Shown: positions 24,424-42,505 of the stretch, piece after piece
Numbering within the stretch: position 1 is the first letter of the stretch
Layout of the letters: the number at the start of each line of letters is the position of its first letter
NCBI GenBank assembly: GCA_902540805.1
Contig: CACBON010000001.1
Location: forward strand, 85,777-149,776
Length of the DNA: 64,000 nt
Direction: 5' to 3'
From: an uncultured Alphaproteobacteria bacterium
GTDB lineage: Bacteria; Pseudomonadota; Alphaproteobacteria; Methylaequorales; Methylaequoraceae
Notes under the pieces: generated by a model
Database searches by the model: none
Told to the model about the DNA's origin: nothing
What the model saw: only the letters and a program-made list of their open reading frames with translations
Translations under genes and position numbers: made by a program

Positions 24424-24500
<77 letters not shown>

Positions 24501-24626
24501 TTTATCTGCTTATAATATATGAATTTGTTAATTAAAAGTGAAAAATATAAATTTTTCTTTTAAATGTTGTTGTTATTTTTAGATTACATTAATATTAATT
24601 AAATTAGAGGAAATGGAAATTAAGAG

Positions 24627-25952
24627 GTGAAATTCAAATTACATCTGGCTATCTTAGCATTATTATCCTATCCCCTTATTTCAACCTCTGAAGAACTTTC
24701 CGATGTTCTGAAAGATGCATATAGTTTTTATCCTGACATTAAAAAAAGTAAAACAGAACTAAAAATTTCAGAAAAAGATTTAAAAATTTCAAAAACTGAT
24801 TTTCTACCATCCCTTGATTTTTCAGCTTCACAAGGAAGGAAAATTTCGAAAAGCAATCCTGATACATCTCGAATTAATGATAGCGCAATCAACCCAACTA
24901 CTTTCGACATAGATTTATCTCAACCACTAGGTTACACAAAAGCAATAAATTTCAAGCAAGCTAAAAATAATTTGAACATTGCAAAATTAAGCTTTTACGC
25001 TACAGTTCAAGATGTTTTATTTAAAGCTAGTAGAGCTTATTATACTGTCTTAAAAGATCATTTTCTTTTAGATGTTTCAAAGAGGAATGAAGAAACTCTT
25101 GAAAAAAAACTCGAAGCTACAGAAAAAAGGTTCGAATTTAAAGACGTAACTAAAACCGACGTGTTTCAGGCCAAAGCAAGGTTAGCAGGTGCCACGTCAA
25201 AAAGAATAGAAGCTGAAAATAATTTAGAAATTTCAATTTCTGACTTTAAAACAATTGTTGGTAGAGCTCCAAATATTAGATGGCTTGATTCTAATAATGC
25301 CCAAATTGTCGACGCTAATCCAAAAGATTGGTCAAAATTTGGAGAAATTCCAAAACTTCCAAAATCTTTGGATGATTCAATAAAAACGGGTTTAGAAAAG
25401 AACCCAGATTACAGAAAATTAAAATTACAACTTATGAACTCAAAATTGGATGTAAGAAAAAATAATTTAAATTTTGCACCCGAATTATCTTTGTCTGGAT
25501 CAGTAGGAAAATCACTCGATTCCTCTAGAACAATTGAAAGAACAGATTCATACTCAGTAACTGCTAATGTTACAGTTCCATTATTTAACAAAGGGCATAA
25601 TTTATTGAATTTAGAAAAATCCAAAGATTCTGCTCTTACAGTGATTAGATCAATTGAGACAAAAAAACTTGATTTGCAATTTCAAATTAATTCGGCATGG
25701 AAGAAAATAGAAAGTTCAAAATCAAGTATTGAATCTCTTGAAGTTTCTGTTGAATCAAATTTAATGGCAGTTGAGGGTGTAACTAAAGAAGCAAGTGTTG
25801 GTACCAGAACAACGTTAGAAATTCTAGATGCACAAAAAGATCTAACAGATTCTGAATCAAATTTAGTAAACGCTCAATATCAACTTATTATTTCATCCTT
25901 CGAATTATTGAAATTATGCGGAATTCTAAATTTCGAAACAATTGAAAAATAA
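24627..25952 (+). CDS. tolC: TolC-family outer-membrane efflux/secretion protein (T1SS locus A)
   Basis: 441 aa with a GTG start and signal peptide. Two-repeat TolC architecture with typical LP(S/E)L(D/S).S and coiled-coil segments. Confidence 0.85.
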   Translation: MKFKLHLAILALLSYPLISTSEELSDVLKDAYSFYPDIKKSKTELKISEKDLKISKTDFLPSLDFSASQGRKISKSNPDTSRINDSAINPTTFDIDLSQPLGYTKAINFKQAKNNLNIAKLSFYATVQDVLFKASRAYYTVLKDHFLLDVSKRNEETLEKKLEATEKRFEFKDVTKTDVFQAKARLAGATSKRIEAENNLEISISDFKTIVGRAPNIRWLDSNNAQIVDANPKDWSKFGEIPKLPKSLDDSIKTGLEKNPDYRKLKLQLMNSKLDVRKNNLNFAPELSLSGSVGKSLDSSRTIERTDSYSVTANVTVPLFNKGHNLLNLEKSKDSALTVIRSIETKKLDLQFQINSAWKKIESSKSSIESLEVSVESNLMAVEGVTKEASVGTRTTLEILDAQKDLTDSESNLVNAQYQLIISSFELLKLCGILNFETIEK

Positions 25953-26065
25953 AATTAATTAAAGCTTGCTTAAAATTTAAAAATAAAATAATGTTAAAAT
26001 AGACTGTATCGACTTTTTAAAGTATTAACACAATTTAATTTTTCAACTTAATAAAGGAATTTATT

Positions 26066-27157
26066 ATGGCAGACTTTACTACACTGCCTCCTGACCTTAT
26101 GGATCTCGGCGATGCTGCAGGTACTGCTGCATTCGATGCGATGCAGGGCGGAGGTAGTTTTGACGAATGTATGACTGCAGCAATGGACGTTATGACGGAA
26201 GGTGGAATGCCACCTGAAATCATGGCAAACATGGCTGATACCGCTCAAGGTGCATACAACGATTTTATGGCTGAAAACCCTGGTGCAAGTGCAACAGAGG
26301 CCTTTGACGCTGTAACTGAGGTTATGGATACTCATTTAGACGGATGTCCTGACGGACCATGCACAGATTTTGGAGGTGACATGCCTCCAGTTCCGGACAT
26401 GGGACCAGGTGCTGATGCTCCCCCACCTCCGCCTCCGGGTGATTTACCAGGCGCTCCAGGTGATATGGCAGGCGGTCCCGCTATCGATCCAGCCACTGGA
26501 ATGGCGCCACAACCTCCTGAAGGCCCAGGTGAAGGTGGACCTCCTCCAGGGGATATGGCAGGACCAGACGGACCTCCTCCAGGCGACATGGCAGCAGGTG
26601 GACCAGAATTCGGACCAGCAACCCCTCCTCCTGATATGGGACCAGAGACAATGGGACCTGATGGACCTCCTCCAGGCATGGATATGGATGGAGACGGAAT
26701 GCCCCCTCCACCTCCAGGTGATATGGCAGGCGGTCCCGCTATCGATCCAGCCACTGGAATGGCGCCACAACCTCCTGAAGGCCCAGGTGAAGGTGGTTAC
26801 GATGACGGACCAGCACCAATGGACTATCCTCCAGACGGACCTCCTCCAGGTGAACCAGGAGGACCGGATCCATTATTTGGTGAAGGTGGACCAGCTGGTG
26901 GACCGCCACCACTTGACATGCCTCCAGGAGATCCAATGGGTGAACCAGGACCAATGGATGGCGGACCTGGTGCTCCAGGTGATATGCCTCCTGATGGAAT
27001 GGGCGATATGCATACTCATATGGACGATGCTGGAGCACATCATACACCAACAGACGGGCCTCCAATAGATCCTGCTGCTGGAATGGATCCAGGTGATATG
27101 CCTGCAGATATGCCTCCACCTCCTGACGATCCAAATGATGGTGGTGAGGTAGTCTAA
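26066..27157 (+). CDS. Acidic Pro/Gly/Met/Asp-rich low-complexity protein (candidate T1SS-A cargo); no signal peptide and no RTX repeats
   Basis: 363 aa with SD AAAGGA upstream. Ala/Met/Asp helical-looking N-terminal ~100 aa, then PPPGDMAG-type repeats, and a C-terminal Met/His cluster GDMHTHMDDAGAHH. Own terminator downstream. This frame is chosen over 6 overlapping ORFs because of the SD, the ATG and its consistent repeat sense. Confidence 0.7.
   Translation: MADFTTLPPDLMDLGDAAGTAAFDAMQGGGSFDECMTAAMDVMTEGGMPPEIMANMADTAQGAYNDFMAENPGASATEAFDAVTEVMDTHLDGCPDGPCTDFGGDMPPVPDMGPGADAPPPPPPGDLPGAPGDMAGGPAIDPATGMAPQPPEGPGEGGPPPGDMAGPDGPPPGDMAAGGPEFGPATPPPDMGPETMGPDGPPPGMDMDGDGMPPPPPGDMAGGPAIDPATGMAPQPPEGPGEGGYDDGPAPMDYPPDGPPPGEPGGPDPLFGEGGPAGGPPPLDMPPGDPMGEPGPMDGGPGAPGDMPPDGMGDMHTHMDDAGAHHTPTDGPPIDPAAGMDPGDMPADMPPPPDDPNDGGEVV
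26454..26538 (+). repeat. 85-bp exact direct repeat, copy 1 (copy 2 at 26712..26796)
   Basis: CTCCAGGTGATATGGCAGGCGGTCCCGCTATCGATCCAGCCACTGGAATGGCGCCACAACCTCCTGAAGGCCCAGGTGAAGGTGG occurs twice, 258 bp (86 codons) apart and in frame. It encodes PGDMAGGPAIDPATGMAPQPPEGPGEGG. Confidence 0.9.
26712..26796 (+). repeat. 85-bp exact direct repeat, copy 2
   Basis: Identical to 26454..26538 by direct reading. Confidence 0.9.
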
Positions 27158-27181
27158 AGCTATACTTCTTTAAGTAAAAAA

Positions 27182-27214
27182 CCCTCTCACAGTTTCTGAG
27201 AGGGTTTTTTTTTT
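27182..27214 (+). terminator. Rho-independent terminator between the cargo gene and the ABC gene
   Basis: 8-bp GC-rich stem CCCTCTCA / TGAGAGGG with a 7-nt loop, followed by T10. Confidence 0.8.
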
Positions 27215-27246
27215 GATTAAATCAAAAATTAATATATTATGTTCAC

Positions 27247-29418
27247 ATGGAAGCCATGCGTGGATCTCAAAAATCAATTATTCTAGTTGCAAGACAACTT
27301 GGGGTTCATATTGGTCCAAACGATATTCCAGAAAGATTTCAAATTGAAGATAGAGAGCTAAGAATTTCTGAAATGTGTGACTTAGCTCATTCATTTGATT
27401 TAAAAGCAAAAGCAACCAAAATTAGCGAAAAGGAATTAGTAAAGCTCTTATCTAAAAAACAACAAATCTTAAGACTTAAAAATGGCAGATACATAATAGC
27501 GTTAAGAGTTATTCAAGGTGAAAAAGATGACGATAAGTCAGTTTTATGCCTTGATACTGGTGTAACAAGTCCTAAACCTCAACAAATTAATTTAAAAGAA
27601 TTAAAAAAAGGGTGGGATGGAGAAGTTATTCTATTAAAAGCTAAACTTAAAAAATTTGAAGAGGATAGCGAATTAAAAATTGGATGGTTAATTGGCGAAT
27701 CATTTAGAAATAAATCTGTTATGATTCAGGTTATAATAGTAGCTTTGATTTTGAACATTTTTGCAGTTATACCTGCTGTTTTCATGATGTTGGTGTTGGA
27801 TAAAGTTGTGAACTATGAAGCTTATTCAACTTTATATGTCATAACTTCAGGTGTTATTGTTGCGTATGTATTTAATGGAATACTTGGGTATTTAAAATCA
27901 TATCTTCTTGATTTTTTCTCACAAAAAGTTGAAGCAAAACTTTCAGTTAAAGTTTTTGAAAAATTAATTGCTTTACCAATGCAAAGGTTTCACAAAGAAT
28001 CCGCCACTTTTTTGAGATTCACAGGACAAATATCTCAGATAAAAAGCCTTTTGACTCAAAAAGTTTTCTCAACAGCACTAGACTCAATCAGTTTACTTGT
28101 TTTTGTTCCCATTCTATTTTTTTATAGTCCTTTACTATTTATTGTTGTGTTTTCATTCAGTATATTAGGAGCTTTAGCATCAATGTTTTACTCAAAAAAA
28201 CAAAGAGATTCTCTTGCTGGTTTAAGTAAGGCTGAATCAAAGAGACAAGAATTTATTTCTGTTGCTGTAAACGGAATCGAGAATGTGAAGGGACTTGCTC
28301 TTGAACCTAATTTGAAAGATCAGTGGAGAGATTTGGAAGCAAATTATATTATTGCAAATGAAGAAATGCAAAAAAAGTCAGCAGTTTTAAACAACATTTC
28401 ATCAACCATAAATCAACTTATGACTGCAATGGTTATTTTTGTCGGAGTGCATCTTGTATTTTCTGGATCTCTTTCAGCCGGAATTTTAGTAGGTTTTAAT
28501 ATGCTTGCTGGCAGAGTTTCAAAGCCAATAATTGATCTAGTTACGCTAAAAACAGAAATAACAAAATTAGTTCAATCCCTTCAGATCATATCAGGAATAG
28601 TGGATGCTAACACCGAAACAACTGTTAGAGGCCAAAAACCTCAACTCATGGGACAAGTTAGTTTTAAAAATGTTGAGTTTGGGTACGACGATAACACAAA
28701 AGTATTAAATGATATTGACATTGAAATTAACCCAAGACAGATAATTGGTATAACTGGTAAAAGTGGTTGTGGGAAAAGTACCATTGCAAAACTAATTCAA
28801 GGTTTATATAGACCGCAAGCTGGCATCGTAGCCCTTGATAATATAGATCTACGTCTATTGGACCTGAGTCACGTAAGATCACAGGTTTCATTAGTTGGAA
28901 CAGATAGTTATTTTTTTCCTGGAACAATAAGAGAAACAATAGCAAGTGCAATGCCAAATTCTTCAATGGACAGAATAACTTGGGCTGCAAAAAAAGTTTT
29001 CGCACATGAAGAAATTGAGTCTTATCCTGATGGATATGAAACATTCTTAGAAGAAAATGCTACAAATCTTGCAACTGGCTTAAGACAAAAACTAGCAATT
29101 GCCAGAGCACTTATTAGAAACCCTCGTATCATGATACTTGATGACGCTTTCACAGGTTTTGACGTTGACAGTGAAATAAAATTATACGATGCACTATCAG
29201 ATATTGCTCTTGGCAGAACGATAATTATCGTATCAAACAGGGTTTGGCACCTTCGACTTTGTAATAAAATCTTTGTACTTGAAAAGGGGAAAATATCTCA
29301 ACAGGGTTCTTTTGAAGAATTAAGACAAATTTCAGGTTATTTTGGTCAAACGTATAATAAGCAAATGTCTATTTTGGGAGTTGATAACAAAATTAAATCT
29401 ATAAAGAGGGCCGGGTAA
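27247..29418 (+). CDS. HlyB-type T1SS ABC protein with an N-terminal C39-like (non-catalytic) domain and degenerate ATPase motifs
   Basis: 723 aa: a ~160-aa N-terminal cytoplasmic domain ending KGWDGEVILLK, six-TM region, and an NBD with Walker A GKSGCGKST. Signature is LATGL (not LSGGQ), Walker B is ILDDA (Asp for the catalytic Glu), H-loop position is SNR, and the Q-loop is VGTD. Confidence 0.85.
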   Translation: MEAMRGSQKSIILVARQLGVHIGPNDIPERFQIEDRELRISEMCDLAHSFDLKAKATKISEKELVKLLSKKQQILRLKNGRYIIALRVIQGEKDDDKSVLCLDTGVTSPKPQQINLKELKKGWDGEVILLKAKLKKFEEDSELKIGWLIGESFRNKSVMIQVIIVALILNIFAVIPAVFMMLVLDKVVNYEAYSTLYVITSGVIVAYVFNGILGYLKSYLLDFFSQKVEAKLSVKVFEKLIALPMQRFHKESATFLRFTGQISQIKSLLTQKVFSTALDSISLLVFVPILFFYSPLLFIVVFSFSILGALASMFYSKKQRDSLAGLSKAESKRQEFISVAVNGIENVKGLALEPNLKDQWRDLEANYIIANEEMQKKSAVLNNISSTINQLMTAMVIFVGVHLVFSGSLSAGILVGFNMLAGRVSKPIIDLVTLKTEITKLVQSLQIISGIVDANTETTVRGQKPQLMGQVSFKNVEFGYDDNTKVLNDIDIEINPRQIIGITGKSGCGKSTIAKLIQGLYRPQAGIVALDNIDLRLLDLSHVRSQVSLVGTDSYFFPGTIRETIASAMPNSSMDRITWAAKKVFAHEEIESYPDGYETFLEENATNLATGLRQKLAIARALIRNPRIMILDDAFTGFDVDSEIKLYDALSDIALGRTIIIVSNRVWHLRLCNKIFVLEKGKISQQGSFEELRQISGYFGQTYNKQMSILGVDNKIKSIKRAG

Positions 29419-29424
29419 CTAAAT

Positions 29425-31149
29425 ATGGCTGAAAAAAAAAATATACAACCGGCTGTTAGAAATTTAGCTGCTGGTGATGTGCTTTTTAGAGAAGGTGAAG
29501 TTGGTGACTATGCCTATCAAATAGTAAAAGGAAAAATAGAGGTATGTAAATTCAACGGTGACGAATACGTCACTTTATCAATACTTGAAAAAGGCGCGTT
29601 GTTTGGAGAAATGGCATTAATTGACAAACAACCAAGAAGTGCAATGGCTAGAGCAACTGTTGAGACAACGGTAAAAGAAATTGATCAAAATGCTTTATTA
29701 GGCTATCTCAAAAACTCTCCTCAAACAGCTTTTAATATGATGCAGCAACTTGCAAGCTACGCTAGAAATGCAAACGAAAAATTGTCTGTGGATGCTTTTG
29801 AATCTGGAAATGAAAATGAAAATAACAAAGATCAAGAAGAAGTTTTAACTGAGGAGGAAAAAGAAAATAGATCAAAGAAAAAAATGATGAGTGAATTGTT
29901 GGATGAGTTTGATGACGATATTGATAGAATTAAAACAAAACAGGTACCTCGTTCAGTAAAAATGTCAGTTTATTCATTTGGTTTCCTAATTTTATTTTTA
30001 ATTACTTGGGGCACTATTTCCGAAATTGATACTACAATTTCTGCTTCTGGTAAAATTACCACCGTTGTTCCAAATGTAGAGGTGCAATCAAACTATAATT
30101 CTGTTGTCAAAGAAATACTTGTAAAAAAAGGCGAGAGTGTCAATCAAGGAGACCCACTCGTAACTTTCGATGCTACACTTCAAAGAGCGGATAAAATGAA
30201 ACTTGATTATCAGCTTTCAGTTGTAAATTCAAAAATTGACAGACTAAAAAAGCAATCATTGTTAAGGAATAATGTTTCGGTTGCAAACCCAAATGACGAA
30301 AGACAAAGCAGAATCTTCAAAGATAAAAAAGACCAATATTTAGCAAAGATTGCTTCATTAGATCAACAAATAGGTTCTACAGAAGACGATTTAAAGTTTA
30401 TCAAGGAACAACTTGATATACAAAAGCAGCTAGAAGATTCAAAGTTGGAGTTATTTGAACTTGATCTTGTAGCAGAGTCACAAGTTTTAGCTGAAAAAAA
30501 CAAAAGGTTATCTTTAGAAAAAGAATTCACAAAAACTAGCAATAAACTAAGCGAATTAAAATCTAATAGAAAAGAATATAATAGCCAATTTTTTGGAGGA
30601 ATAAACGATGAGCTTGTTGCATTAGAGGATCAAAGAATGTCGCTACAAGAAGATGTAAAAAAACTTGAAAGACAACAAACTGATGTAGTGGTGAGAGCGC
30701 CGTCTGACGGTATGATTCTAGACCTTCATTCTTTATATCCTGGAGCAGTAATAACACAAGGTAAAAGTGTTGTTACATTGGTACCAACAGGTGTGGAATT
30801 ATTAACTGTTTTTGATGTTGATCCCTCTGATATTAGCAAACTAATTCCGGATACGTCTGTTAAAATTCAACTTAATGCCCTTCCAGCACAAAAACACGGT
30901 GAGTTAAAAGGAAAGCTTATTTATGTTTCTGCTGACACAATTGATAAAGACGTCGATGGAAAACCAGGAAATTTTTATAGGGCTAGGGCTCAAATAACAG
31001 AAAATGAGTTAAAAGATATTCCTCCAGGATTTAATTTAATGCCAGGAATGAAAGTTTCAGGAAAGTTTAGAGTTGGGCAAAGAAGATTAATTACGTATTT
31101 TATTTATCCACTTATAAGAACTCTTGGTAATAGTTTTGCAGAACCATGA
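29425..31149 (+). CDS. HlyD-family T1SS membrane-fusion protein with an N-terminal cyclic-nucleotide-binding domain
   Basis: 574 aa. CNB domain with phosphate-binding cassette FGEMALIDKQPRSAMARA, an acidic linker, one TM (VYSFGFLILFLITWGTI), then HlyD lipoyl/coiled-coil/beta-barrel regions (GKITTVVPN...GDPLVTFD ... VRAPSDGMI). Confidence 0.85.
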   Translation: MAEKKNIQPAVRNLAAGDVLFREGEVGDYAYQIVKGKIEVCKFNGDEYVTLSILEKGALFGEMALIDKQPRSAMARATVETTVKEIDQNALLGYLKNSPQTAFNMMQQLASYARNANEKLSVDAFESGNENENNKDQEEVLTEEEKENRSKKKMMSELLDEFDDDIDRIKTKQVPRSVKMSVYSFGFLILFLITWGTISEIDTTISASGKITTVVPNVEVQSNYNSVVKEILVKKGESVNQGDPLVTFDATLQRADKMKLDYQLSVVNSKIDRLKKQSLLRNNVSVANPNDERQSRIFKDKKDQYLAKIASLDQQIGSTEDDLKFIKEQLDIQKQLEDSKLELFELDLVAESQVLAEKNKRLSLEKEFTKTSNKLSELKSNRKEYNSQFFGGINDELVALEDQRMSLQEDVKKLERQQTDVVVRAPSDGMILDLHSLYPGAVITQGKSVVTLVPTGVELLTVFDVDPSDISKLIPDTSVKIQLNALPAQKHGELKGKLIYVSADTIDKDVDGKPGNFYRARAQITENELKDIPPGFNLMPGMKVSGKFRVGQRRLITYFIYPLIRTLGNSFAEP

Positions 31150-33521
31150 TCAAATTAAAGCTAAGTTTTAGACTAATTGTTACTATTGCTTCATTAGTAA
31201 TGGCTATTCTTTTTGGTTTGATTCGTATAGCTGATCCTGAAATAGTAGAAGTTCTAAGACTAAAGTATTTTGATGTTCTTCAAAAAAAATTCCCAAGGTC
31301 TACGGATGGTCAAACTTATTCCGTAATAGTAGATATTGATGAAAAATCTCTCAGAGAAATTGGTCAATGGCCGTGGCCAAGAACTGTACTTGCTGATCTT
31401 TTTAAAAAATCTAAGGAATCAGGTATGCTTGTTTTAGGCCTAGATGTTCTATTTGCAGAAAAAGACAGAACTTCACCTGATTTAATTTCTCAAGATTTAG
31501 AAAAAAGAAACCCAACTATCGCCAAGTTATTAAGTGAACTTCCTTCTAATGAGTTTTTAGCCACAGAAGCTATGAATGACTTTCCTGTAGTAATCGGTCA
31601 CTCTGGTTTAGATGTTGAAGGTGATGCAAACAGAAATGATATAAACGATTCGTCTGTAAAAGTTTTTGTTGGTAAAGGTAAAAATCCGAAGGAATGGTTG
31701 ATATCTTATCCTGGATTGCTAGCTAATGTGACAGAGTTTGAAAAAGCTGCTTCTGGCTCCGGAACAGTGTCAGTTGCACAGGAACCTGATGGAATTATTA
31801 GAAGAGTACCCTTAATATCAAATGTTGCAGGTGAAATCAGACCAACTCTTGGGCTCGATATGATACGGGTTGCGTTTCAAGGAAATAGTATTGCCACAAG
31901 GACAGGTTTGACGGGAATTCAAGAAATAATAATTCAAACCAAGGCCATTGGAAATGCTGCCATTCCGACTGATGAGAATGGTAGAGTGTGGATTTATTAC
32001 GGTGATTCAGATGCTGGTAAAGTTAAAGAAGATACATCAAGATATTATGTAAGTGCAGTTGATATAATTAAAGGAAGAGTTGGGAAAGATAGATTACAAG
32101 GAAAACTTGGAATACTTGGCACATCGGCCACTGGATTAAAGGATATTAGACCCACGCCAGTCGATGAAAGAATGCCAGGTGTTGAAATTCATGCAAACCT
32201 TATTGATACCGTCATTTCAGCAATTCTTTATTATACATCTACAAAAAATTCTGAAAAAGTTTTTAAAGACGCATTAAAAAAAGGCTTAAGTGAAGAAGAA
32301 GCAATAATTGAAAAAAATAAAGTTAAAATTTCAGGATCTCCTTTTTTGAAATCCGGTGCAAATATGAAATTTTATGAATCACTATTTACAATTTTTCTAG
32401 CATTATTTATCACAATATCTGCATTAAAGTTTGGTCCAATTGTTAATATTTCATTACTTGTAACTATCATAAGTTCTGCTTTTTATATAAGTGTAAGGTT
32501 ATTTCTTGACCATAAAACTTTATTTGACCCAACCTTTGCAGGTGTAACAACTTTTGTAATTTATTTTGGTAACACCTTTGCAAACTACTTGCGAGATGCC
32601 AATGAGAAGAAACAGATAAGAGGTGCATTTTCACAATATCTATCCCCTGCTTTAGTAGAGCAATTAGCTGAAGATCCTGATAAATTAGTTTTGGGTGGAG
32701 AAACAAAAAAAATGACATTTCTTTTTTGTGATGTAAGAGGATTTACAACTATTTCAGAAGCTTTTAAGTCTGATCCTCAAGGCTTAACAAAACTTATTAA
32801 TAGGTTTTTAACTCCTCTTACTAATGAAATCATAAATAAAAACGGAACAATCGATAAATATATGGGAGATTGTATCATGGCTTTTTGGAATGCACCTATT
32901 GACGTCGAAAATCATGAGCAAGTTTCATGTGAAGCAGCATTAAGTATGCATAAAGCACTTAAAGAACTTAACGATATCAGAGAGCAAGAAGCAAAGTCAG
33001 ATAATAAAGATTTTTTAGAGTTAAAAATTGGAATTGGACTAAATACAGGAGGTTGTGTTGTTGGAAATATGGGGTCAGATCAAAGGTTTGATTATTCTGT
33101 GTTAGGAGACGCTGTCAATTTAGCTTCACGTCTTGAAGGTCAATCAAAAGGTTATGGCGTTAAAACAGTTATTGGACAAGAAACAAACGATGCTATTAAA
33201 GATACTTTTGCTACACTCCAACTTGATATGTTAGCAGTTAAAGGTAAAAAAGAAGCTGTTTCAATTTTTTGTTTACTTGGTGACCCCAGTTTTAAAAAAA
33301 GCCAGGATTTCAAAACCCTTGAAATAAAGCACAAAAACATATTAAATAACTATTTCAATCAAAATTGGGGAGAAGCTATGGAGGAAATGACTCAGGCAAA
33401 AACACTTTGTAAAAACTTGATGAAAGATTATTATGAAATGATGACAGATAGAATTAATGAATATAAAAAGTCTCCTCCGCCAAAAGATTGGGATGGTGTT
33501 TTTGTTGCAACCTCAAAATAA
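31146..33521 (+). CDS. CHASE2-sensor class III adenylate/guanylate cyclase (adenylate-type specificity residues)
   Basis: 791 aa. N-terminal TM, CHASE2 hallmark DIDEKSLREIGQWPWPR, three TMs, then a cyclase domain FLFCDVRGFTTISE...DKYMGDCIMAFWNAP...RFDYSVLGDAVNLASRLEG. ATGA overlap with the upstream gene. Confidence 0.9.
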   Translation: MIKLKLSFRLIVTIASLVMAILFGLIRIADPEIVEVLRLKYFDVLQKKFPRSTDGQTYSVIVDIDEKSLREIGQWPWPRTVLADLFKKSKESGMLVLGLDVLFAEKDRTSPDLISQDLEKRNPTIAKLLSELPSNEFLATEAMNDFPVVIGHSGLDVEGDANRNDINDSSVKVFVGKGKNPKEWLISYPGLLANVTEFEKAASGSGTVSVAQEPDGIIRRVPLISNVAGEIRPTLGLDMIRVAFQGNSIATRTGLTGIQEIIIQTKAIGNAAIPTDENGRVWIYYGDSDAGKVKEDTSRYYVSAVDIIKGRVGKDRLQGKLGILGTSATGLKDIRPTPVDERMPGVEIHANLIDTVISAILYYTSTKNSEKVFKDALKKGLSEEEAIIEKNKVKISGSPFLKSGANMKFYESLFTIFLALFITISALKFGPIVNISLLVTIISSAFYISVRLFLDHKTLFDPTFAGVTTFVIYFGNTFANYLRDANEKKQIRGAFSQYLSPALVEQLAEDPDKLVLGGETKKMTFLFCDVRGFTTISEAFKSDPQGLTKLINRFLTPLTNEIINKNGTIDKYMGDCIMAFWNAPIDVENHEQVSCEAALSMHKALKELNDIREQEAKSDNKDFLELKIGIGLNTGGCVVGNMGSDQRFDYSVLGDAVNLASRLEGQSKGYGVKTVIGQETNDAIKDTFATLQLDMLAVKGKKEAVSIFCLLGDPSFKKSQDFKTLEIKHKNILNNYFNQNWGEAMEEMTQAKTLCKNLMKDYYEMMTDRINEYKKSPPPKDWDGVFVATSK

Positions 33522-33534
33522 AAACTAGGTTAAA

Positions 33535-33975
33535 ATGAGTTTAAAAAAGATTAGAGTTCTTCCAGATCAATATATCGTTCGAGAGGGTGAAGTTGGGGAA
33601 ACTGCTTTCTTAGTTATCTCAGGTGGATTAATCGCAGAAATTAAAGGAAAAAAAATAGGTAAAATTGAAACAGGTGAAATCTTTGGAGAACTTTCCTTAA
33701 TTCTTGGCGAAAACAGAACTGCAAGCGTAAAAGCAGTTGTCCCAAGTGAAGTTGTTGAAATAAAAAGAAAGGCATTAGAGGCTATTTTGTTATCGTCAAA
33801 TATAGATTTGCATAAAATTATTAACGAAATGTCAAAGGAATTAGGAAAGTCTGACGACCAAAAACTTCCTATTACCAAAGCTGATCTTTTAAAACTTACC
33901 AAAGACTCTCCTAACGTAATAAGAGCTCTAGCATTACAGATTCATTATAGATTATCTCAAAGGATATTCTCTTGA
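33535..33975 (+). CDS. Stand-alone cyclic-nucleotide-binding domain protein (no HTH)
   Basis: 146 aa with PBC FGELSLILGENRTASVKA. Too short for a CRP-type DNA-binding domain. Confidence 0.8.
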   Translation: MSLKKIRVLPDQYIVREGEVGETAFLVISGGLIAEIKGKKIGKIETGEIFGELSLILGENRTASVKAVVPSEVVEIKRKALEAILLSSNIDLHKIINEMSKELGKSDDQKLPITKADLLKLTKDSPNVIRALALQIHYRLSQRIFS

Positions 33976-34439
33976 AAGAAGTTAGTCACGGAAAAACAAC
34001 AAAAGTTTTAATGCTAGAAGGAGAAACACTTTTTAATCAAGGTGATAAGGGTAATAAAGCTTACATGATAGTTCAAGGAGCTCTTGATGTAGTAGTTGAT
34101 GGAAAAAAAGTCGGTTCTATGAGAGATGGAGAGGTTTTTGGTGAAATGGCTTTAATTTTAAAACAAAACAGAAGCGCAACAATTACATCAAGTCAATCCA
34201 CAGAGTTGATATCCATTAGTAAAGAAAATCTTGATGAGCTTATTAATTCTGGTTCAAAAGCTGCTCAGAGGATAATTAGAGATTTATGTGAAGAACTCGC
34301 CAAAAGGACTGAATTTCAAAAAGTACTTTATTCACATAAGGAAATAGATGAGATAATAGCGTCAGAGAATCAAATAATACAAAAAATCACAAAACAAATT
34401 CTTTATAGATTAGAGCGGTCAACAAGTCATGTTGAATAA
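33972..34439 (+). CDS. Stand-alone cyclic-nucleotide-binding domain protein (no HTH)
   Basis: 155 aa with PBC FGEMALILKQNRSATITS. TTG start overlapping the upstream TGA (TTGA). Confidence 0.75.
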   Translation: MKEVSHGKTTKVLMLEGETLFNQGDKGNKAYMIVQGALDVVVDGKKVGSMRDGEVFGEMALILKQNRSATITSSQSTELISISKENLDELINSGSKAAQRIIRDLCEELAKRTEFQKVLYSHKEIDEIIASENQIIQKITKQILYRLERSTSHVE

Positions 34440-34476
34440 AGATTTTATTAATTTCTACAATATGTTATTATAAGAT

Positions 34477-36174
34477 ATGAAATATTCAGATTATATTCAT
34501 GAATCAGAGATTAATCATAAATCTTTAAGTTATAATCTTCTCACTCCGAAGGCAACCAAAGGAAAACCCCTAAAGCCTCAAAAAATTAAAGTATCTCCTG
34601 CCAAGGCATTGACTCTGTTAGCCCCATACACAATTTCCAGAGTTATGGAGCAAATCAAAGCAGTTGTTCCACTTGCAGCATATTTATTTCTATTTCAACT
34701 TTTAATTCTAAGACAACCAATCTCTTCAGCGACCACAATTTGTCTAGGATTGATTGCAGTAATAATAGGCCTAGCAATTTTTATGGAGGGTCTTAAAACC
34801 GGTTTAATGCCATTTGGCAATGTAATTGGAGATACATTACCAAAAAAAGCACCTATGGTTCTTGTTTTAATTATTATTGGAATACTAGGAGTTGGGGTAA
34901 CTTATGCGGAACCAGCTATCGGAGCACTCAAAGCTTTTGGTTCGTCAATAAATCCACAGGACGCACCATATCTCTATGAGATACTCAACAATAGAAGTGA
35001 AACCTTAGTTGTAATGGTCGGTGCTGGCGTTGGACTAGCTGCTATCATTGGAACAATAAGGTTTGTAAAAGGTTGGTCTCTTAAACCTATGATTTATGCG
35101 GCTCTTGCACCAACAATAATTCTTACTGCATATGTATGGAGTAACCCTGATTTAAGAACTATTCTTGGATTAGCTTGGGATTGCGGAGCTGTTACTACTG
35201 GACCAGTTACTGTACCTCTTGTGCTATCACTAGGTATTGGAATTGCAGCATCAGCTGGCAAAGGAGATTCATCTCTTTCTGGTTTTGGCGTTGTTACAAT
35301 GGCTTCATTATTTCCAATTATCGCTGTTCTGATTCTTGCCATACACGTTTCTCAAACAATCTCAGTTGAGGAAATAATTGCTTCGACTGATATGGCTTCA
35401 GATATGGCCATAGGAGAGGTTTCTAAGTGGTCACAAACCCCGTTTGTTGAGATTATTGGAGGAGTCAGAGCAATACTTCCACTTGTAATATTTTTAATGA
35501 TTGTGCTTTTTGTAATCCTTAAATCTAAACTTCCTAATAATATGATAACAACTTATGGGCTAACTTTGTCCATTGTTGGAATGTGTGTCTTCAATATAGG
35601 TCTTACATATGGTTTAGGAGCAATAGGTGGCCAAGCTGGAACTAATCTTCCTGCTGCCTTTATGGAAGTTCCTGTAAGTGAAGTATCACCAATTTATAAC
35701 GAATTATTAGGTTTAACTATAGTAATCCTTTTCGCTTGGCTTTTAGGATTTGGCGCAACTCTTGCTGAGCCTGCACTTAATGCTCTTGGTTTAACAGTTC
35801 AAGAGCTCACAAATGGTGCCTTCAAAAAGTCAATGTTAATGTATAGTGTTGCCGGGGGCGTTGCATTTGGGATAGCCTTAGGTGTAGGAAAAATTGTCTT
35901 TGCTTTTGACTTAGCAACAGTTTTAATACCACTTTATCTTCTTGCAATTGTTTTAACTTACTTTTCAACTGAAGAATTTGTTAATGTCGCCTGGGATAGC
36001 GCTGGAGTCACAACCGGTCCTGTAACTGTACCACTTGTTTTGGCAATGGGTCTTGGTTTAGGAAATGCTGTATCCGCCACTGAGGGTTTTGGCATTCTAT
36101 CTATGGCAAGTATTTGTCCAATTCTTGCTGTACTCTTAATGGGACTATATATACAATTTAAACAAAAAAAATAA
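34477..36174 (+). CDS. Polytopic membrane protein with two DUF1538 domains
   Basis: 565 aa, about 12+ TMs. Duplicated signature AWDCGAVTTGPVTVPLVLSLGIG / AWDSAGVTTGPVTVPLVLAMGLG. Confidence 0.8.
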   Translation: MKYSDYIHESEINHKSLSYNLLTPKATKGKPLKPQKIKVSPAKALTLLAPYTISRVMEQIKAVVPLAAYLFLFQLLILRQPISSATTICLGLIAVIIGLAIFMEGLKTGLMPFGNVIGDTLPKKAPMVLVLIIIGILGVGVTYAEPAIGALKAFGSSINPQDAPYLYEILNNRSETLVVMVGAGVGLAAIIGTIRFVKGWSLKPMIYAALAPTIILTAYVWSNPDLRTILGLAWDCGAVTTGPVTVPLVLSLGIGIAASAGKGDSSLSGFGVVTMASLFPIIAVLILAIHVSQTISVEEIIASTDMASDMAIGEVSKWSQTPFVEIIGGVRAILPLVIFLMIVLFVILKSKLPNNMITTYGLTLSIVGMCVFNIGLTYGLGAIGGQAGTNLPAAFMEVPVSEVSPIYNELLGLTIVILFAWLLGFGATLAEPALNALGLTVQELTNGAFKKSMLMYSVAGGVAFGIALGVGKIVFAFDLATVLIPLYLLAIVLTYFSTEEFVNVAWDSAGVTTGPVTVPLVLAMGLGLGNAVSATEGFGILSMASICPILAVLLMGLYIQFKQKK

Positions 36175-36189
36175 TTAAAGGAAACAATT

Positions 36190-36546
36190 ATGGCCAGAGA
36201 TATCACTTATTTAACAGACGTTTTTTTAATCACTTGTGTTGTTGAAAGTGGTCTTGCCGACAAAATCATTGATGCAGCCACAAATGTTGGAGCACAAGGT
36301 GCAACAATTAACTATGCCAGGGGTACTGGCATTAGAAATAGAATGGGACTTCTTGGTGTAACTATAGACGAGCAAAAGGAAATAATAAGAATTATTGTTT
36401 CTAAAGAACAATCGAATAGAGTTTTTGAATCAATGTACTTAGCTGGAAATCTCGATACACCTGGGAAAGGAATAATGTGGATGGTTAAACTTGACAGAGT
36501 TGCGACTCATATACCTAAAGATGTCATTAAACGAGCCGGAGGGTAA
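36190..36546 (+). CDS. PII-like signal-transduction protein
   Basis: 118 aa. PII-like beta-alpha-beta pattern with a T-loop-like ARGTGIRNRMGLLG. Canonical neighbour of DUF1538 genes. Confidence 0.7.
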   Translation: MARDITYLTDVFLITCVVESGLADKIIDAATNVGAQGATINYARGTGIRNRMGLLGVTIDEQKEIIRIIVSKEQSNRVFESMYLAGNLDTPGKGIMWMVKLDRVATHIPKDVIKRAGG

Positions 36547-36548
36547 GT

Positions 36549-36848
36549 ATGTCAAAATTCGTTGAAATTGGTGGCTTAATAAAAAAAGGTTTAGGACAAA
36601 AAGTTGTTAAAAAGTTTTCTGAAAACTCAGACGTTATTTCAGTGGGTTATGCTAATGGAAGAGCCACAGACATGTTTGACATACAGCAATTTGGTGACGC
36701 TAGTGAAGCAGATATTCTTACTCTCATCGTCAAAGAAAGAAAAGGAAATGTTATCTTTGATGAGCTTTACAAGCATTTAAAACTCAATTCTCAAAAAAAC
36801 GGCGTGATTTTCAAATCTGAAACAATTGCAAAATCTTCTGTAAAATAA
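36549..36848 (+). CDS. Second, divergent PII-like protein
   Basis: 99 aa, 2 nt after the previous gene, with an ANGRATDMF loop. The family call is tentative. Confidence 0.5.
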   Translation: MSKFVEIGGLIKKGLGQKVVKKFSENSDVISVGYANGRATDMFDIQQFGDASEADILTLIVKERKGNVIFDELYKHLKLNSQKNGVIFKSETIAKSSVK

Positions 36849-36849
36849 T

Positions 36850-38121
36850 TTATCTTTCGGATAATGCAAAGCTAGCACCAGTTATAAAAGGAGTTAGGAA
36901 ATAATCCATAAAACTTCTTTTACCAGTTATAATTCCAACCATAACTGGAACACCAGACAAAAGTCTATATTCCTCGTTTTTTCGTGCAAAAGAGTTTTCA
37001 GAAGTTTCCACCTTAACTAAATAAAAACCCTCTTCATCTTTATTAGAAATTCTGTCAGCACCTACAAAAACAACCTTCCCTTTTATTGATCTAAACCTAG
37101 AGCCTTCAGGAGTATTTAGTCTAATTTTTGCTTCAAGGTTTTTTTTTACGTAACCAATTTCTGATAAAGGTAATTTTGCCTCAATGATTAGTTTTTCGTT
37201 TTCAGGTACAATTTCAACAACAGTTACGCCAGGAGCGACTATAGCTCCTTTAGAATTTACTGACACAAGTTTTATTGTTCCAGACACAGGGCTTTTTAAA
37301 ACAGTTCTATTTAAACTATCTGAATATTTCTGAATTCTTTTATTAAGTTCTTCTTTTTCTTTTCGGTACTGTGACAACTCGATATTTAAATCTTCTATGT
37401 AATTGTTTTGCACTTTTTCTAAGTCATTCTTGCTCAAATCAATAATAGATTGTTGTTCGTCGATACTCCCTTCAACCTCCTGCCTTTCTCTTAAAATTTC
37501 TAAATGCTTTAACCTATTTGTTGCTTCAACTTCTAACAATTTTTGACTAATATCTTCTTGTTCTTTAACGATTTTTAATCTTTTTTTTAAATTTTTGAGA
37601 TTTTTATTAGCTTTATCAATACTTGCTTTCTTGGACTTTATTTCAGAGTTGATTGCTTTTCTTCTACTTTGAAAAAGTTCATTTTCAGATTTTACTAATT
37701 CCTTGTCAAATAAATTATTTATATTTTCAGGAATTTCTATTGAATTATCAGAATTTATTTCAGAATTAACTCTAAGTATTGACAGATCAATTGATTTAAG
37801 TCTTGAATTAATTTCCTCAAATTCAGAGCTTGCTTTTTCTTTTGATAAAACTACTAAAGGCTGATTTATTTCAACTTTTTCACCTTCACTAATTAGTATT
37901 TCTTCAACTATTCCACCCTCTAAATGTTGCACATACTTCATTCTTCCTTGGGGTATTATTTTTCCATCAGCTAAGCTTAATACCTCAATAATTTTTAAAT
38001 TCACTAGTAGCAAAAAAATAAGTGAAAAAAGAATTAATGATACTTTTAGTCTTTTACTAATAACGTTTTTTGGTTTTTCATCGTTTTTAAATAAATTCCA
38101 TTTTACCCATTTCTCTGTCAT
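36850..38121 (-). CDS. HlyD-family T1SS membrane-fusion protein (locus B)
   Basis: 423 aa. N-terminal TM, GKIIPQGRMKYVQHLEGGIVEEILISEGEKVEINQPLV, a long coiled coil, and a C-terminal barrel (SPVSGTI...). Confidence 0.9.
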   Translation of the reverse strand: MTEKWVKWNLFKNDEKPKNVISKRLKVSLILFSLIFLLLVNLKIIEVLSLADGKIIPQGRMKYVQHLEGGIVEEILISEGEKVEINQPLVVLSKEKASSEFEEINSRLKSIDLSILRVNSEINSDNSIEIPENINNLFDKELVKSENELFQSRRKAINSEIKSKKASIDKANKNLKNLKKRLKIVKEQEDISQKLLEVEATNRLKHLEILRERQEVEGSIDEQQSIIDLSKNDLEKVQNNYIEDLNIELSQYRKEKEELNKRIQKYSDSLNRTVLKSPVSGTIKLVSVNSKGAIVAPGVTVVEIVPENEKLIIEAKLPLSEIGYVKKNLEAKIRLNTPEGSRFRSIKGKVVFVGADRISNKDEEGFYLVKVETSENSFARKNEEYRLLSGVPVMVGIITGKRSFMDYFLTPFITGASFALSER

Positions 38122-38125
38122 TTTT

Positions 38126-39715
38126 TCACCCTAAATTAGTTTGTTTATCACTTAATTTAATAATTTCAGAATCTTCTGAAAAACAAATTACGGTTTTTCC
38201 AGCTCTTTTTAATGAGGCTATCAATTTGAGTATCATATTTTTACCTAATTTATCTAGATATAATAACGGATCATCAAAAATATAAACTTGATAAGTTTTT
38301 GAAATCGACCGTGCAATATGTATTTTTTTTAAAATCCCTTTTGAATAATTTTTATTTATAGAATCAGTTATAGTTAAATCTGATTTTTTTAACTCTTTAT
38401 CTAATCCAACATTTTGAAGCAGTCTACTTACCTCTTGTTCATTCAGATCAGGGTTGGATATTAAAATATTATTTAAAATTGATGAATTTAACACTTCAAC
38501 ATCTTCTGGTATATAAGCTACTTGATTCTTATACCATTGCAATGATAGTTTCTCCAAATTAGTTTCATCTAATAAAATATCACCAGATTCTGGATTAATT
38601 AGTCCCATAAGTAATTTTGCAATTGTGGTCTTTCCCGAGCCATTCGATCCGCTAATAACTGAAATTTCTGATGAATTAAAATTAGCAGAGAAATTTTTAA
38701 TTATATACTTATTATCATTATCAAAAGAGTAGTTTACATTTTTAAGTTTATAATTCCCTATAATTTTACTTAGTTGCATACCCTCAACTCTATTTTTAGA
38801 GTTTTTGAAAAAATCTTGGCAATCATTAAGATACATATTTGTTCTCTCAATAATAGAATATGAATTTTGTGCTGATGAAATTGAACCCAATGCTCGAGTA
38901 GCAAATATATTAAATCCTATGAGGCTTCCAATAGTAAGATTTCCGTTTACGACAAAGATACTCCCAAATCCAATAGTAATGATTGATGATAATAAAACAA
39001 AAAAACTCGTTGTGGAGATTTGTTGAGCATCAAAATTTGCGGTTGAAGAGTCAATTTTTAATTTTTTATTTAAGTAATTTTCTAGATAATATCCAGAATA
39101 TTTAAATGCTAAAGTAGATTTTAAAAGCTCTTGATTAGTTCCAATCTCTTTAATTATTAATTTATCATTCTTAGATAAATTTAATTTTTCCAGGTTTAGA
39201 TTTTTATTTTTTATTAATCTTTGTTGCAATAACAAGAAAATAATAACAAGAATTAAAAAAATTGTTGCCAATAATAGGTCCAGAAAAAAAAGAATAATAA
39301 TAATCAAAGTTGCAAAAATTGAGTCGAGAAGATTTGACTGAACTTTGGGTGATAAGAATTGAAAAAAATTATTATTGAAATCAATTATTTCAACAAAATT
39401 TCTTTTTGAGGTTTTATTTTCTCTCTCAAAAAATGTTTTGATTAGGTCTAATTTAAAAAATTTTATTGGATTTATGAGAAGTTCACATAAGATTTTACTC
39501 CTTATATTCCTAAATATATACTCGAATACTGCAACTAAAAGAGCACCTGATAATAGAAAAAACAATGTTCCCTGAAGGCCGAATGCAATATATCTATTAA
39601 AAATGTGAATAATAAAGATTGGGCTTAATAAACCCATTATAGTGATAAAAAAAGTCAATAAAAGAATAGTATTTAGGGATTTACTTTCTTTTAATATGTG
39701 AAACCAAAACTTCAT
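38126..39715 (-). CDS. T1SS-type ABC protein (TMD+NBD, no N-terminal peptidase domain) with degenerate ATPase motifs
   Basis: 529 aa. Walker A GSNGSGKTT is intact. Signature is YSKGI, Walker B is IFDDP, the Q-loop is IPED, and the H-loop position is FSED. Confidence 0.8.
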   Translation of the reverse strand: MKFWFHILKESKSLNTILLLTFFITIMGLLSPIFIIHIFNRYIAFGLQGTLFFLLSGALLVAVFEYIFRNIRSKILCELLINPIKFFKLDLIKTFFERENKTSKRNFVEIIDFNNNFFQFLSPKVQSNLLDSIFATLIIIILFFLDLLLATIFLILVIIFLLLQQRLIKNKNLNLEKLNLSKNDKLIIKEIGTNQELLKSTLAFKYSGYYLENYLNKKLKIDSSTANFDAQQISTTSFFVLLSSIITIGFGSIFVVNGNLTIGSLIGFNIFATRALGSISSAQNSYSIIERTNMYLNDCQDFFKNSKNRVEGMQLSKIIGNYKLKNVNYSFDNDNKYIIKNFSANFNSSEISVISGSNGSGKTTIAKLLMGLINPESGDILLDETNLEKLSLQWYKNQVAYIPEDVEVLNSSILNNILISNPDLNEQEVSRLLQNVGLDKELKKSDLTITDSINKNYSKGILKKIHIARSISKTYQVYIFDDPLLYLDKLGKNMILKLIASLKRAGKTVICFSEDSEIIKLSDKQTNLG

Positions 39716-42434: not shown

Positions 42435-42505
42435 ACCACTGTTAATGCTATGTTTACGACATAAAAGGAAATTTATTTAGTTGAAAGCTCTATTATTCAG
42501 GAACT

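Follow-up and report, generated by a model that had tools for sequence, protein, structure and literature searches.

A stretch of 64,000 nucleotides from an uncultured Alphaproteobacteria bacterium (from here on, the window) encodes an ATP-binding cassette (ABC) protein at positions 27247-29418 that resembles HlyB of the type I secretion systems (T1SS). As alignment with HlyB shows, its nucleotide-binding domain (NBD) has lost every residue for hydrolysis and for signalling to the transmembrane domain (TMD). These are the Q-loop glutamine, the catalytic glutamate, the H-loop histidine and, in part, the ABC signature. These substitutions are shared by the orthologs, and strong purifying selection maintains them as a family trait.

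The original prediction for this gene held that the protein may bind ATP, hydrolyse it poorly and act as a gated conduit. That reading is consistent with all findings described here, and is developed below into a tentative mechanism. The protein, its domains and its motifs are laid out as follows.

27247-29418, forward strand: HlyB-like ABC protein, 723 amino acids (aa); open reading frame (ORF) without internal stop, ATG at 27247
27247-27666, forward strand: C39-like domain (CLD), residues 1-140; Pfam Peptidase_C39 E 1.1e-5, and alignment with the HlyB CLD
27694-28626, forward strand: six-helix type I exporter TMD, residues 150-460; Pfam ABC_membrane E 4.6e-33
28654-29346, forward strand: NBD, residues 470-700; Pfam ABC_tran E 1.3e-26
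28756-28782, forward strand: Walker A GKSGCGKST, residues 504-512, intact (HlyB GRSGSGKST); HlyB alignment
28900-28902, forward strand: Q-loop position, Thr552 for Gln; HlyB alignment
29068-29082, forward strand: ABC signature, LATGL for LSGGQ, residues 608-612; HlyB alignment
29128-29145, forward strand: Walker B IMILDD (HlyB ILIFDE), residues 628-633; HlyB alignment
29236-29238, forward strand: H-loop position, Asn664 for His (HlyB His662); HlyB alignment

Nucleotide-binding motifs

The alignment pairs residues 13-693 with HlyB 16-691 and is gapless over the NBD motifs. All motif readings of the original prediction (Walker A, Q-loop, signature, Walker B and H-loop) hold in it. The motifs are not shifted, and no canonical LSGGQ, glutamate or histidine is present. 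The catalytic Glu631 of HlyB corresponds to Asp633, and the D-loop is TGFD in this protein versus SALD in HlyB. The A-loop tyrosine (Y480, HlyB Y477) and the Mg-coordinating aspartate (Asp632, HlyB D630) are retained.

In HlyB, E631 and H662 form a required catalytic dyad, of which H662 is called the 'linchpin'; Y477 stacks on the adenine and D630 holds the Mg (PMC8277102). A Walker B without glutamate is the hallmark of a degenerate site (PMC7544095). Natural sites with a Walker B aspartate are the non-hydrolytic sites of heterodimeric exporters (PMC7756269; PMC7544095).

An MsbA-like exporter of 592 aa, on another contig of the same genome, has the canonical motifs GYSGAGKTT, SQD, LSGGQ, LLDEA and AHRL. 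Low GC composition is thus not the cause of the changes, which are specific to this protein.

A single ABC gene is found in the operon. It bears both degenerate halves of an ATP site (Walker B, H-loop and Q-loop on the one hand, the signature on the other), and this means that a homodimer would have two degenerate sites. The central claim of the earlier prediction, that a homodimer would have no canonical ATP site, is thus upheld by the aligned motif states. The degenerate sites of TM287/288, TmrAB, TAP1/2, BmrCD and LmrCD look similar, with a Walker B aspartate, a non-histidine H-loop and a deviant signature (PMC7756269). Those heterodimeric exporters however keep one consensus site, which comes from a second, different chain (PMC7756269). 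That review treats degenerate sites only in heterodimeric or full-length transporters with one consensus site (PMC7756269).

Conservation and selection

Orthologs were searched in a set of 5.8 billion proteins. This gave 442 matches, and the figures here are from the best 120 of these, aligned with the window protein (121 sequences). These best 120 are 80-98% identical to it and 716-724 aa long, and come from marine metagenomes and metagenome-assembled genomes labelled Alphaproteobacteria or Rickettsiales.

Asp632, Asp633 and Asn664 are each present in 121 of 121 sequences. The same is true of Walker A residues G504, S506, G507, C508, G509, K510, S511 and T512, with position 505 being K in 117 sequences and R in 4. 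The Q-loop position is S, A or T, never Q. The signature in the orthologs is x-S-T-G-L, and the Ala609 of the window is rare (2/121). In canonical relatives, 45 out of 45 have Gln at the Q-loop and His at the H-loop.

The orthologs thus share the substitutions, with Asp633 and Asn664 invariant, which is what the earlier prediction had said would mark a family trait. That Asp633, Asn664 and Walker A never vary means that in the window's clade the nucleotide site has kept its importance.

Selection was measured as the ratio of non-synonymous to synonymous substitution rates (dN/dS), against a 98% identical locus from a single-amplified genome (SAG), L023. The CLD has a ratio of 0.056, the TMD one of 0.019 and the NBD one of 0.021. 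The comparison is unsaturated, with dS between 0.30 and 0.44 (NBD 0.44). In the window's clade, the NBD is under purifying selection as strong as that on the TMD.

The gene is without internal stops in 22 of the 25 genomes of the window's family in a species-representative collection, spanning 10 genera. Three of these 22 genomes have partial copies that end at contig ends. The three family genomes without the gene are 60-86% complete.

A decaying pseudogene or an assembly artefact would account for the loss of motifs, and nothing beyond that loss speaks for it. Its probability is negligible and it is rejected: the frame is without stops here and in the 22 genomes, 121 orthologous clusters are 77-98% identical, and dN/dS is 0.02-0.05. 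In addition, the structure model is confident and metatranscriptome contigs lie over the gene. Decay without conserved orthologs, the outcome the original prediction had raised against itself, is contradicted by the conservation, the dN/dS and the 22 of 25 genomes.

Domains and fold

The top NCBIfam model is TIGR01846 (type_I_sec_HlyB), with 488.4 bits, under its curated cut-off of 725.55. HlyB (7sgr) is the first phmmer match among all chains of the Protein Data Bank (PDB), with E 1e-100. The Pfam matches cover residues 161-422 for ABC_membrane (PF00664) and 487-635 for ABC_tran (PF00005).

An AlphaFold2 (AF2) model of the protein has a mean predicted local distance difference test (pLDDT) score of 83, with 76-87 in the CLD and ~90 in the NBD. 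Long helices run from 156 to 452. A Foldseek search with the model puts the HlyB structures 7sgr and 8dck on top, with PCAT1 as the second-best structural match. Against 8dck_B, the TM-score is 0.89 (target-normalised) and the root-mean-square deviation is 3.4 Å over 575 columns. According to the model, the NBD fold is kept while the catalytic motifs are replaced.

The ORF does not extend further upstream. The stop that had been noted at 27214-27216 is confirmed as an in-frame TGA.

Pfam Peptidase_C39 (PF03412) matches residues 13-132 with 25.7 bits against a cut-off of 22, which is weak but above threshold. The match begins at profile position 20. On its own, the CLD finds only a weak HlyB match in the PDB (E 0.18), and the assignment therefore rests on Pfam, the full-length alignment and the AF2 model.

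There is no cysteine in residues 1-12 (MEAMRGSQKSII), and in the HlyB alignment the C39 histidine position is Tyr82. The domain had been predicted to be a Cys-less C39-like one, and that part stands. It had also been said that the catalytic-Cys region is absent, and that part is imprecise: twelve residues precede the block aligned with the HlyB CLD, so the equivalent of the cysteine position is probably present, near Gly6 by offset, and not cut off.

The CLD of HlyB has a non-catalytic tyrosine (Tyr9) where C39 peptidases have the cysteine. HlyB itself carries a Cys-less C39-like domain (PMC11026475). This means that a Cys-less CLD is the normal, defining N-terminal domain of HlyB-type exporters and no peculiarity.

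The wider degenerate clade

A full HMMER scan was made of 1.84 billion cluster representatives, in which the window's clade collapses to one representative. The next relatives by identity are P0124 (40%), P0125 (37%), P0126 (33%) and P0131 (29%). P0124 retains the glutamate and the histidine, and its signature is LSTGM. P0131 has Asp and Ser at the Glu and His positions, with signature ISSGQ.

In two others Walker A is lost too: the motif positions read GSSGTEKAA, LDNNL, DN and N in P0125, and ADNPKTASA, WDEDF, DG and K in P0126. Two SAG loci from SAR116 (L028:1328-3496 and L032:650-2818) are also without Walker A. The Walker A positions in such relatives include ATTQDTANA, SPNAETAST and ADNPKTASA, in genes that are intact. 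Nucleotide binding is predicted to be impossible in these proteins. Since some members of the clade are without Walker A, ATP is not required for the common function of the family.

A maximum-likelihood tree of 72 representatives places the window protein within a clade of 13, all degenerate, with an SH-aLRT support of 99. This clade is nested in one of 18, also with SH-aLRT 99. Of the five basal members, P0127, P0133 and P0199 are canonical, and P0208 and P0170 near-canonical. Members of the degenerate clade are found in several alpha- and gammaproteobacterial lineages. A profile search of the 5.8-billion-protein set with a six-sequence alignment (A1) returned almost only the window's clade and no added diversity.

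The TMD identity of P0001 is 0.355 to degenerate members versus 0.28 to canonical ones. Together with the common gene order described below, this gives independent support to the degenerate grouping.

Canonical and degenerate proteins differ in which domain is kept. In canonical HlyB-like pairs, conservation of the NBD exceeds that of the TMD in 100% of cases (0.505 vs 0.338). In pairs from the degenerate clade this holds for only 23% (0.331 vs 0.362), and the TMD is the best-conserved domain there. Positions that are invariant or nearly so in the 45 canonical relatives and lost across the clade include the catalytic motifs, the coupling positions G253 and E339 of the intracellular loops, and further G497, F589, A634, T635 and R665.

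Across the clade, the NBD has been freed from much of its usual constraint, and the conduit has not. For the remodelled NBD of the window's own clade, constraint is tight once more.

Operon, adaptor and candidate cargo

The ABC gene stands in a cluster that starts with a TolC-family gene. The other genes of the cluster are as follows.

24627-25952, forward strand: TolC-family outer-membrane channel, first gene of the cluster; Pfam OEP E 2.8e-56
26066-27157, forward strand: candidate cargo, 363 aa, acidic and rich in Pro, Gly, Asp and Met, ending in ...GGEVV; assigned by composition
29425-31149, forward strand: HlyD-type membrane-fusion protein (MFP) with an N-terminal cNMP_binding domain; Pfam cNMP_binding and HlyD_3
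31146-33521, forward strand: CHASE2 sensor fused to a class III nucleotide cyclase; Pfam CHASE2 E 2e-46, Guanylate_cyc E 9.7e-20
33535-34439, forward strand: two small stand-alone proteins of 146 and 155 aa that bind cyclic nucleoside monophosphate (cNMP); cNMP_binding E 1.1e-14 and 1.7e-17

The TolC-family protein scores 224 bits with TIGR01844 (type_I_sec_TolC), just below the cut-off of 225.15. In the HlyD fusion, the cNMP_binding domain takes up residues 12-97 (E 1.2e-19), and TIGR01843 scores 218.9 bits against a cut-off of 208.65. The start of the cyclase gene overlaps the stop of the HlyD gene. The 363-aa candidate cargo has no lysine and no arginine, 51 Asp and 16 Glu. It is without RTX repeats and without a Pfam match.

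This arrangement recurs. In five of five degenerate metagenome representatives (P0124, P0125, P0126, P0131 and P0138), the gene next after the ABC gene encodes a cNMP_binding-HlyD fusion. In addition, genomes were scanned, one per species, with alignment A1 as query, and the loci were read by a script for ORFs, motifs and hidden Markov models. This yielded 11 loci with a degenerate NBD: four SAGs of the window's clade, four SAR116, one Rhodobacterales, one Piscirickettsiaceae and one Magnetococcales. All 11 have the fusion downstream (E ≤ 2e-41), which with the metagenome loci makes 16 out of 16 with the fusion directly downstream. It is found in none of the ~17 canonical genome loci with a readable downstream gene.

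The gene upstream shows a similar pattern. An upstream ORF could be called at 10 of the degenerate genome loci, and at 9 of them it is acidic and rich in Pro and Gly, with 0-1 Lys and no Arg; the exception is the Magnetococcales locus L027. None of the canonical genome loci has an acidic, Lys/Arg-free upstream ORF.

At the C-terminus, the Lys/Arg-free upstream ORFs usually have an acidic residue and then Val, Ile or Ala. Seen more broadly, nearly all of these proteins have an acidic residue and two small hydrophobic ones at the end (..DVV, ..DIV, ..EVV, ..VEV, ..GMV). This ending may be a C-terminal export tag.

The sequences of the Lys/Arg-free upstream proteins are otherwise very different (L011:7228-7866, L013:6029-7927, L015:3-518, L017:3-611, L020-L040). 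Their repeat units include GDVPPP, DGPPPG, PPPPEGQ and others.

Transcription

In twenty marine metatranscriptome runs, which come from 16 or more studies, 10-18% of the sampled 31-mers of the ABC gene are present. Contigs of four such runs, from four studies, were mapped onto 24500-34500. The ABC gene is covered by RNA contigs of 151-693 nt at 93-100% identity, with a summed depth of ~1-9. For the candidate cargo gene, summed depth is ~40-300 over its body, and lower in the first bin. Between the two genes lies one further feature.

27176-27210, forward strand: intrinsic-terminator-like hairpin and T-run; 14-bp stem with 5 GC pairs

A drop in RNA contig depth at ~27172, from 114-301 to 0-12, coincides with this strong hairpin. 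DNA contamination cannot give a 20- to 100-fold step between adjacent genes, and the cargo transcript is therefore real. Given the abundance of this transcript in ocean metatranscriptomes, the system is probably ecologically active.

In the hly operon, a terminator likewise lies between the cargo gene and the ABC gene, with cargo expressed high and transporter low. This bears on the idea that the ABC protein exports nothing and is a scaffold, receptor or regulator, for example a platform for cNMP signalling. The upstream acidic protein would then travel by another route or stay in the cell. The identity of the cargo comes from gene order alone, a terminator splits its gene from the ABC gene, and it is expressed far higher, all of which fits such a role. 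The hly precedent however shows the same split. Furthermore conservation is highest in the TMD, the cluster also encodes TolC and a HlyD that is complete and scores at the level of TIGR01843, and the order of cargo, ABC and HlyD genes with a Lys/Arg-free upstream protein recurs in distant lineages. A protein without any export role is improbable.

The Pro/Gly/Asp repeat part of the candidate cargo gene (26472-27089) shows many different in-frame-looking length variants in the RNA contigs, which skip 58-532 nt. Strains may accordingly differ widely in repeat number, or else repeats have been collapsed in assembly.

A second ABC system

A second T1SS pair, with possible cargo of its own, is encoded on the opposite strand.

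36850-38121, reverse strand: MFP of the second T1SS pair, beside the 529-aa ABC gene
38126-39715, reverse strand: second T1SS ABC protein, 529 aa, without CLD, degenerate; motifs YSKGI and FDDP, no H-loop His
39768-45781, reverse strand: two FecR-domain/RTX proteins of 888 and 1091 aa, candidate T1SS cargo; Pfam HemolysinCabind and FecR

The motifs of the 529-aa protein (xSKGI, FDDP and no H-loop His) are kept in 10 orthologs from several genera, down to 41% identity. At the Q-loop, other genera have Gln and the window's genus has Glu. The gene lies ~9 kb from the first ABC gene, and in most genomes of the family the two are syntenic, ~10 kb apart.

The two RTX proteins lie 10-16 kb downstream of the first ABC gene, next to the second ABC/MFP pair. 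Together with the 363-aa protein they have the lowest Lys plus Arg content of the 41 ORFs in the window, where the median is 14%. These contents and net charges are 0% and -67 (26066-27157), 4.5% and -122 (39768-42434), and 1.8% and -129 (42506-45781).

It is conceivable that the first ABC protein works only as a hetero-oligomer, in which the second ABC protein or another ATPase supplies the catalytic site. The synteny of the two genes would fit this, and in an assembly that is only ~75% complete a partner could have gone unseen. The second ABC protein is however degenerate itself, and therefore no composite site of the two would be canonical. It also comes with an MFP of its own, and its gene is on the opposite strand.

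The ~75% complete assembly contains just one other exporter-type T1SS ABC protein, the 529-aa one, and no canonical T1SS ABC protein; its sole canonical B-type exporter is the MsbA-like one on the other contig. Among the relatives, no second ABC gene is found within 8 kb on each side of P0124 and P0125, nor in the available flank of P0126 (~0.6 kb upstream, up to the contig end). An obligate hetero-oligomer is thus quite improbable. The parsimonious state inferred from these sequences is the homodimer with two degenerate sites.

Proposed mechanism

The ABC protein would be the inner-membrane part of a conserved and transcribed T1SS that consists of TolC, cargo, ABC protein and HlyD. Its homodimer would bind ATP through A-loop Tyr480, Lys510 and Asp632, with hydrolysis that is extremely slow or nil. 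The NBD pair would then be a nucleotide-dependent latch or assembly module and not a motor, much like a natural E→Q or H→A trap.

Once a disordered, Lys/Arg-free polyanion has been threaded into the conduit of ABC protein, HlyD and TolC, the inside-negative membrane potential could drive it outward. The co-transcribed CHASE2 cyclase would make a cAMP or cGMP signal. This would be sensed by the cNMP-binding domain at the cytoplasmic end of HlyD, which would control opening or assembly.

Earlier work supports an electrical contribution. Cationic stretches block export via HlyBD-TolC, PrtDEF, AprDEF and TliDEF, and negative supercharging rescues it (PMC9223453). The authors ascribe the block to the inside-negative membrane potential (PMC9223453). 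Secretion of HlyA needs proton motive force besides ATP (PMC3034196).

As a whole, this combination of latch, membrane-potential-driven export of a polyanion and cNMP gating is put forward tentatively, as quite possible though short of probable. Several points weigh against it. An aspartate can be a weak general base, giving a slow ATPase, and residual catalysis would account equally well for the lack of variation at Asp633, Asn664 and Walker A in the window's clade. Most orthologs keep the signature serine and the second glycine (LSTGL), and an ATP sandwich dimer may form and turn over.

Among the further points, the cargo role of the 363-aa protein is a candidate one, drawn from gene order and composition. 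Some of the low RNA signal of the ABC gene could stem from DNA carry-over. The tree is the product of a quick search, with the motif columns left in and several rows of atypical composition. A search of the membrane helices for new, clade-specific conserved acidic or histidine residues, which would point to proton coupling, found none, and no proton-relay mechanism is therefore proposed.

The last of these points concerns the adaptor. P0127, basal and canonical (L019:992-3910, from a metagenome), is also followed by a cNMP_binding-HlyD fusion. The fusion is therefore not dependent on a dead NBD, and a strict tie between the two, which was considered, is rejected. No acidic, Lys/Arg-free ORF is found in the ~1 kb upstream of this locus. 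A plain HlyD is found at the canonical P0133 and P0199 and at the near-canonical P0170, with giant upstream proteins at P0199 and P0170. It seems that the adaptor fusion preceded or accompanied the decay of the NBD.

Among the fully canonical HlyB-like proteins, only P0127 was found to have the fusion downstream, and it may represent the ancestral state of the family.

The main alternative to a latch is that the ABC protein is still a motor: a slow, non-canonical ATPase, with export driven by ATP as in HlyB. Asp633 would serve as the base, with Asn664 and Ser/Thr552 standing in for the histidine and glutamine, and a low turnover could be enough for a slow-growing oligotroph. Such a motor would explain why Walker A, the A-loop tyrosine, Asp632, Asp633 and Asn664 are invariant in 121 sequences, and why the NBD is selected as strongly as the TMD. 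The signature serine and second glycine of most orthologs fit it as well, as does P0124, of the same clade, which has both the glutamate and the histidine.

It is harder to square with the joint replacement of glutamate, histidine and glutamine, and partly of the signature, given that HlyB requires its Glu/His dyad (PMC8277102) and that natural Walker B aspartate sites in heterodimers are non-hydrolytic (PMC7756269; PMC7544095). Sister lineages with the same operon and cargo type are without Walker A, and across the clade constraint on the NBD has relaxed in comparison with the TMD. The very high level of cargo mRNA would be a poor fit for a slow motor if it reflects high export flux. A slow motor is a serious possibility, if a somewhat unlikely one.

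Relation to known systems

By its architecture, fold and operon, the ABC protein descends from and works like the HlyB-type exporters. With HlyB (HlyB-HlyD-TolC; PDB 7SGR and 8DCK; CLD 3ZUA) it shares the Cys-less CLD, the six-helix TMD and the NBD. HlyB is the best match in both sequence and fold, and both systems are encoded with a HlyD adaptor and TolC, with a terminator after the cargo gene.

Unlike in HlyB, the E631/H662 dyad, the Q-loop glutamine and LSGGQ are replaced, and the TIGR01846 score is below its cut-off. The HlyD of the window has a cNMP-binding domain, and the adjacent candidate cargo is not an RTX protein but a Lys/Arg-free polyanion rich in Pro, Gly and Asp.

The peptidase-containing ABC transporters (PCAT1, ComA, LahT) are similarly built, with an N-terminal C39-fold domain, an exporter core and an NBD. 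Their NBDs are canonical however, and the window protein is without the C39 catalytic Cys and His. Their cargo has a double-Gly leader, and none is seen in the candidate cargo of the window.

A looser likeness is with TIGR03896, the 'bacteriocin-type transport-associated protein' by cyanobacterial peptide exporters, in which a cyclic nucleotide-binding (CNB) domain is also tied to ABC/HlyD export. In the window, by contrast, HlyD itself carries the CNB domain, next to a degenerate ABC protein; the CNB domains found there match that model weakly, far below cut-off.

The open-access literature searched has yielded no account of this family, of T1SS ABC proteins that lack a canonical site or of cNMP_binding-HlyD fusions, which is not proof of absence.

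What the family may tell about type I secretion

Type I secretion is taught as being powered by ATP hydrolysis in the ABC protein. Ever since the export of HlyA was found to depend on proton motive force as well, there has been debate over what moves the polypeptide, with ATP hydrolysis, the membrane potential and extracellular folding as candidates. The present family looks like a natural experiment, in which the scaffold is under strong selection, the hydrolytic residues and in some lineages also the ATP pocket are gone, and the cargo is purged of positive charge. This makes the energetics of type I secretion directly testable.

If export here is independent of hydrolysis, the 'conduit' role of ABC exporters has been separated from their 'motor' role. 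There would also be a mechanistic reason for the acidity of T1SS substrates, and cAMP- or cGMP-gated protein secretion would exist in abundant marine bacteria. A more general claim goes further: that this is a widespread class of T1SS without ATP hydrolysis, in some members without nucleotide binding, which exports polyanions electrophoretically under the control of a second-messenger switch. That claim is a real possibility at present, but less likely than not.

Other genes in the window

Directly 3' of the cyclase and cNMP-binding genes and on the same strand, 34477-36848 encodes a double-DUF1538 membrane protein, followed by a PII-like protein and a 99-aa ORF. According to NCBIfam, the two DUF1538 halves are weakly related to the UmpA/UmpB subunits of a cation/proton antiporter.

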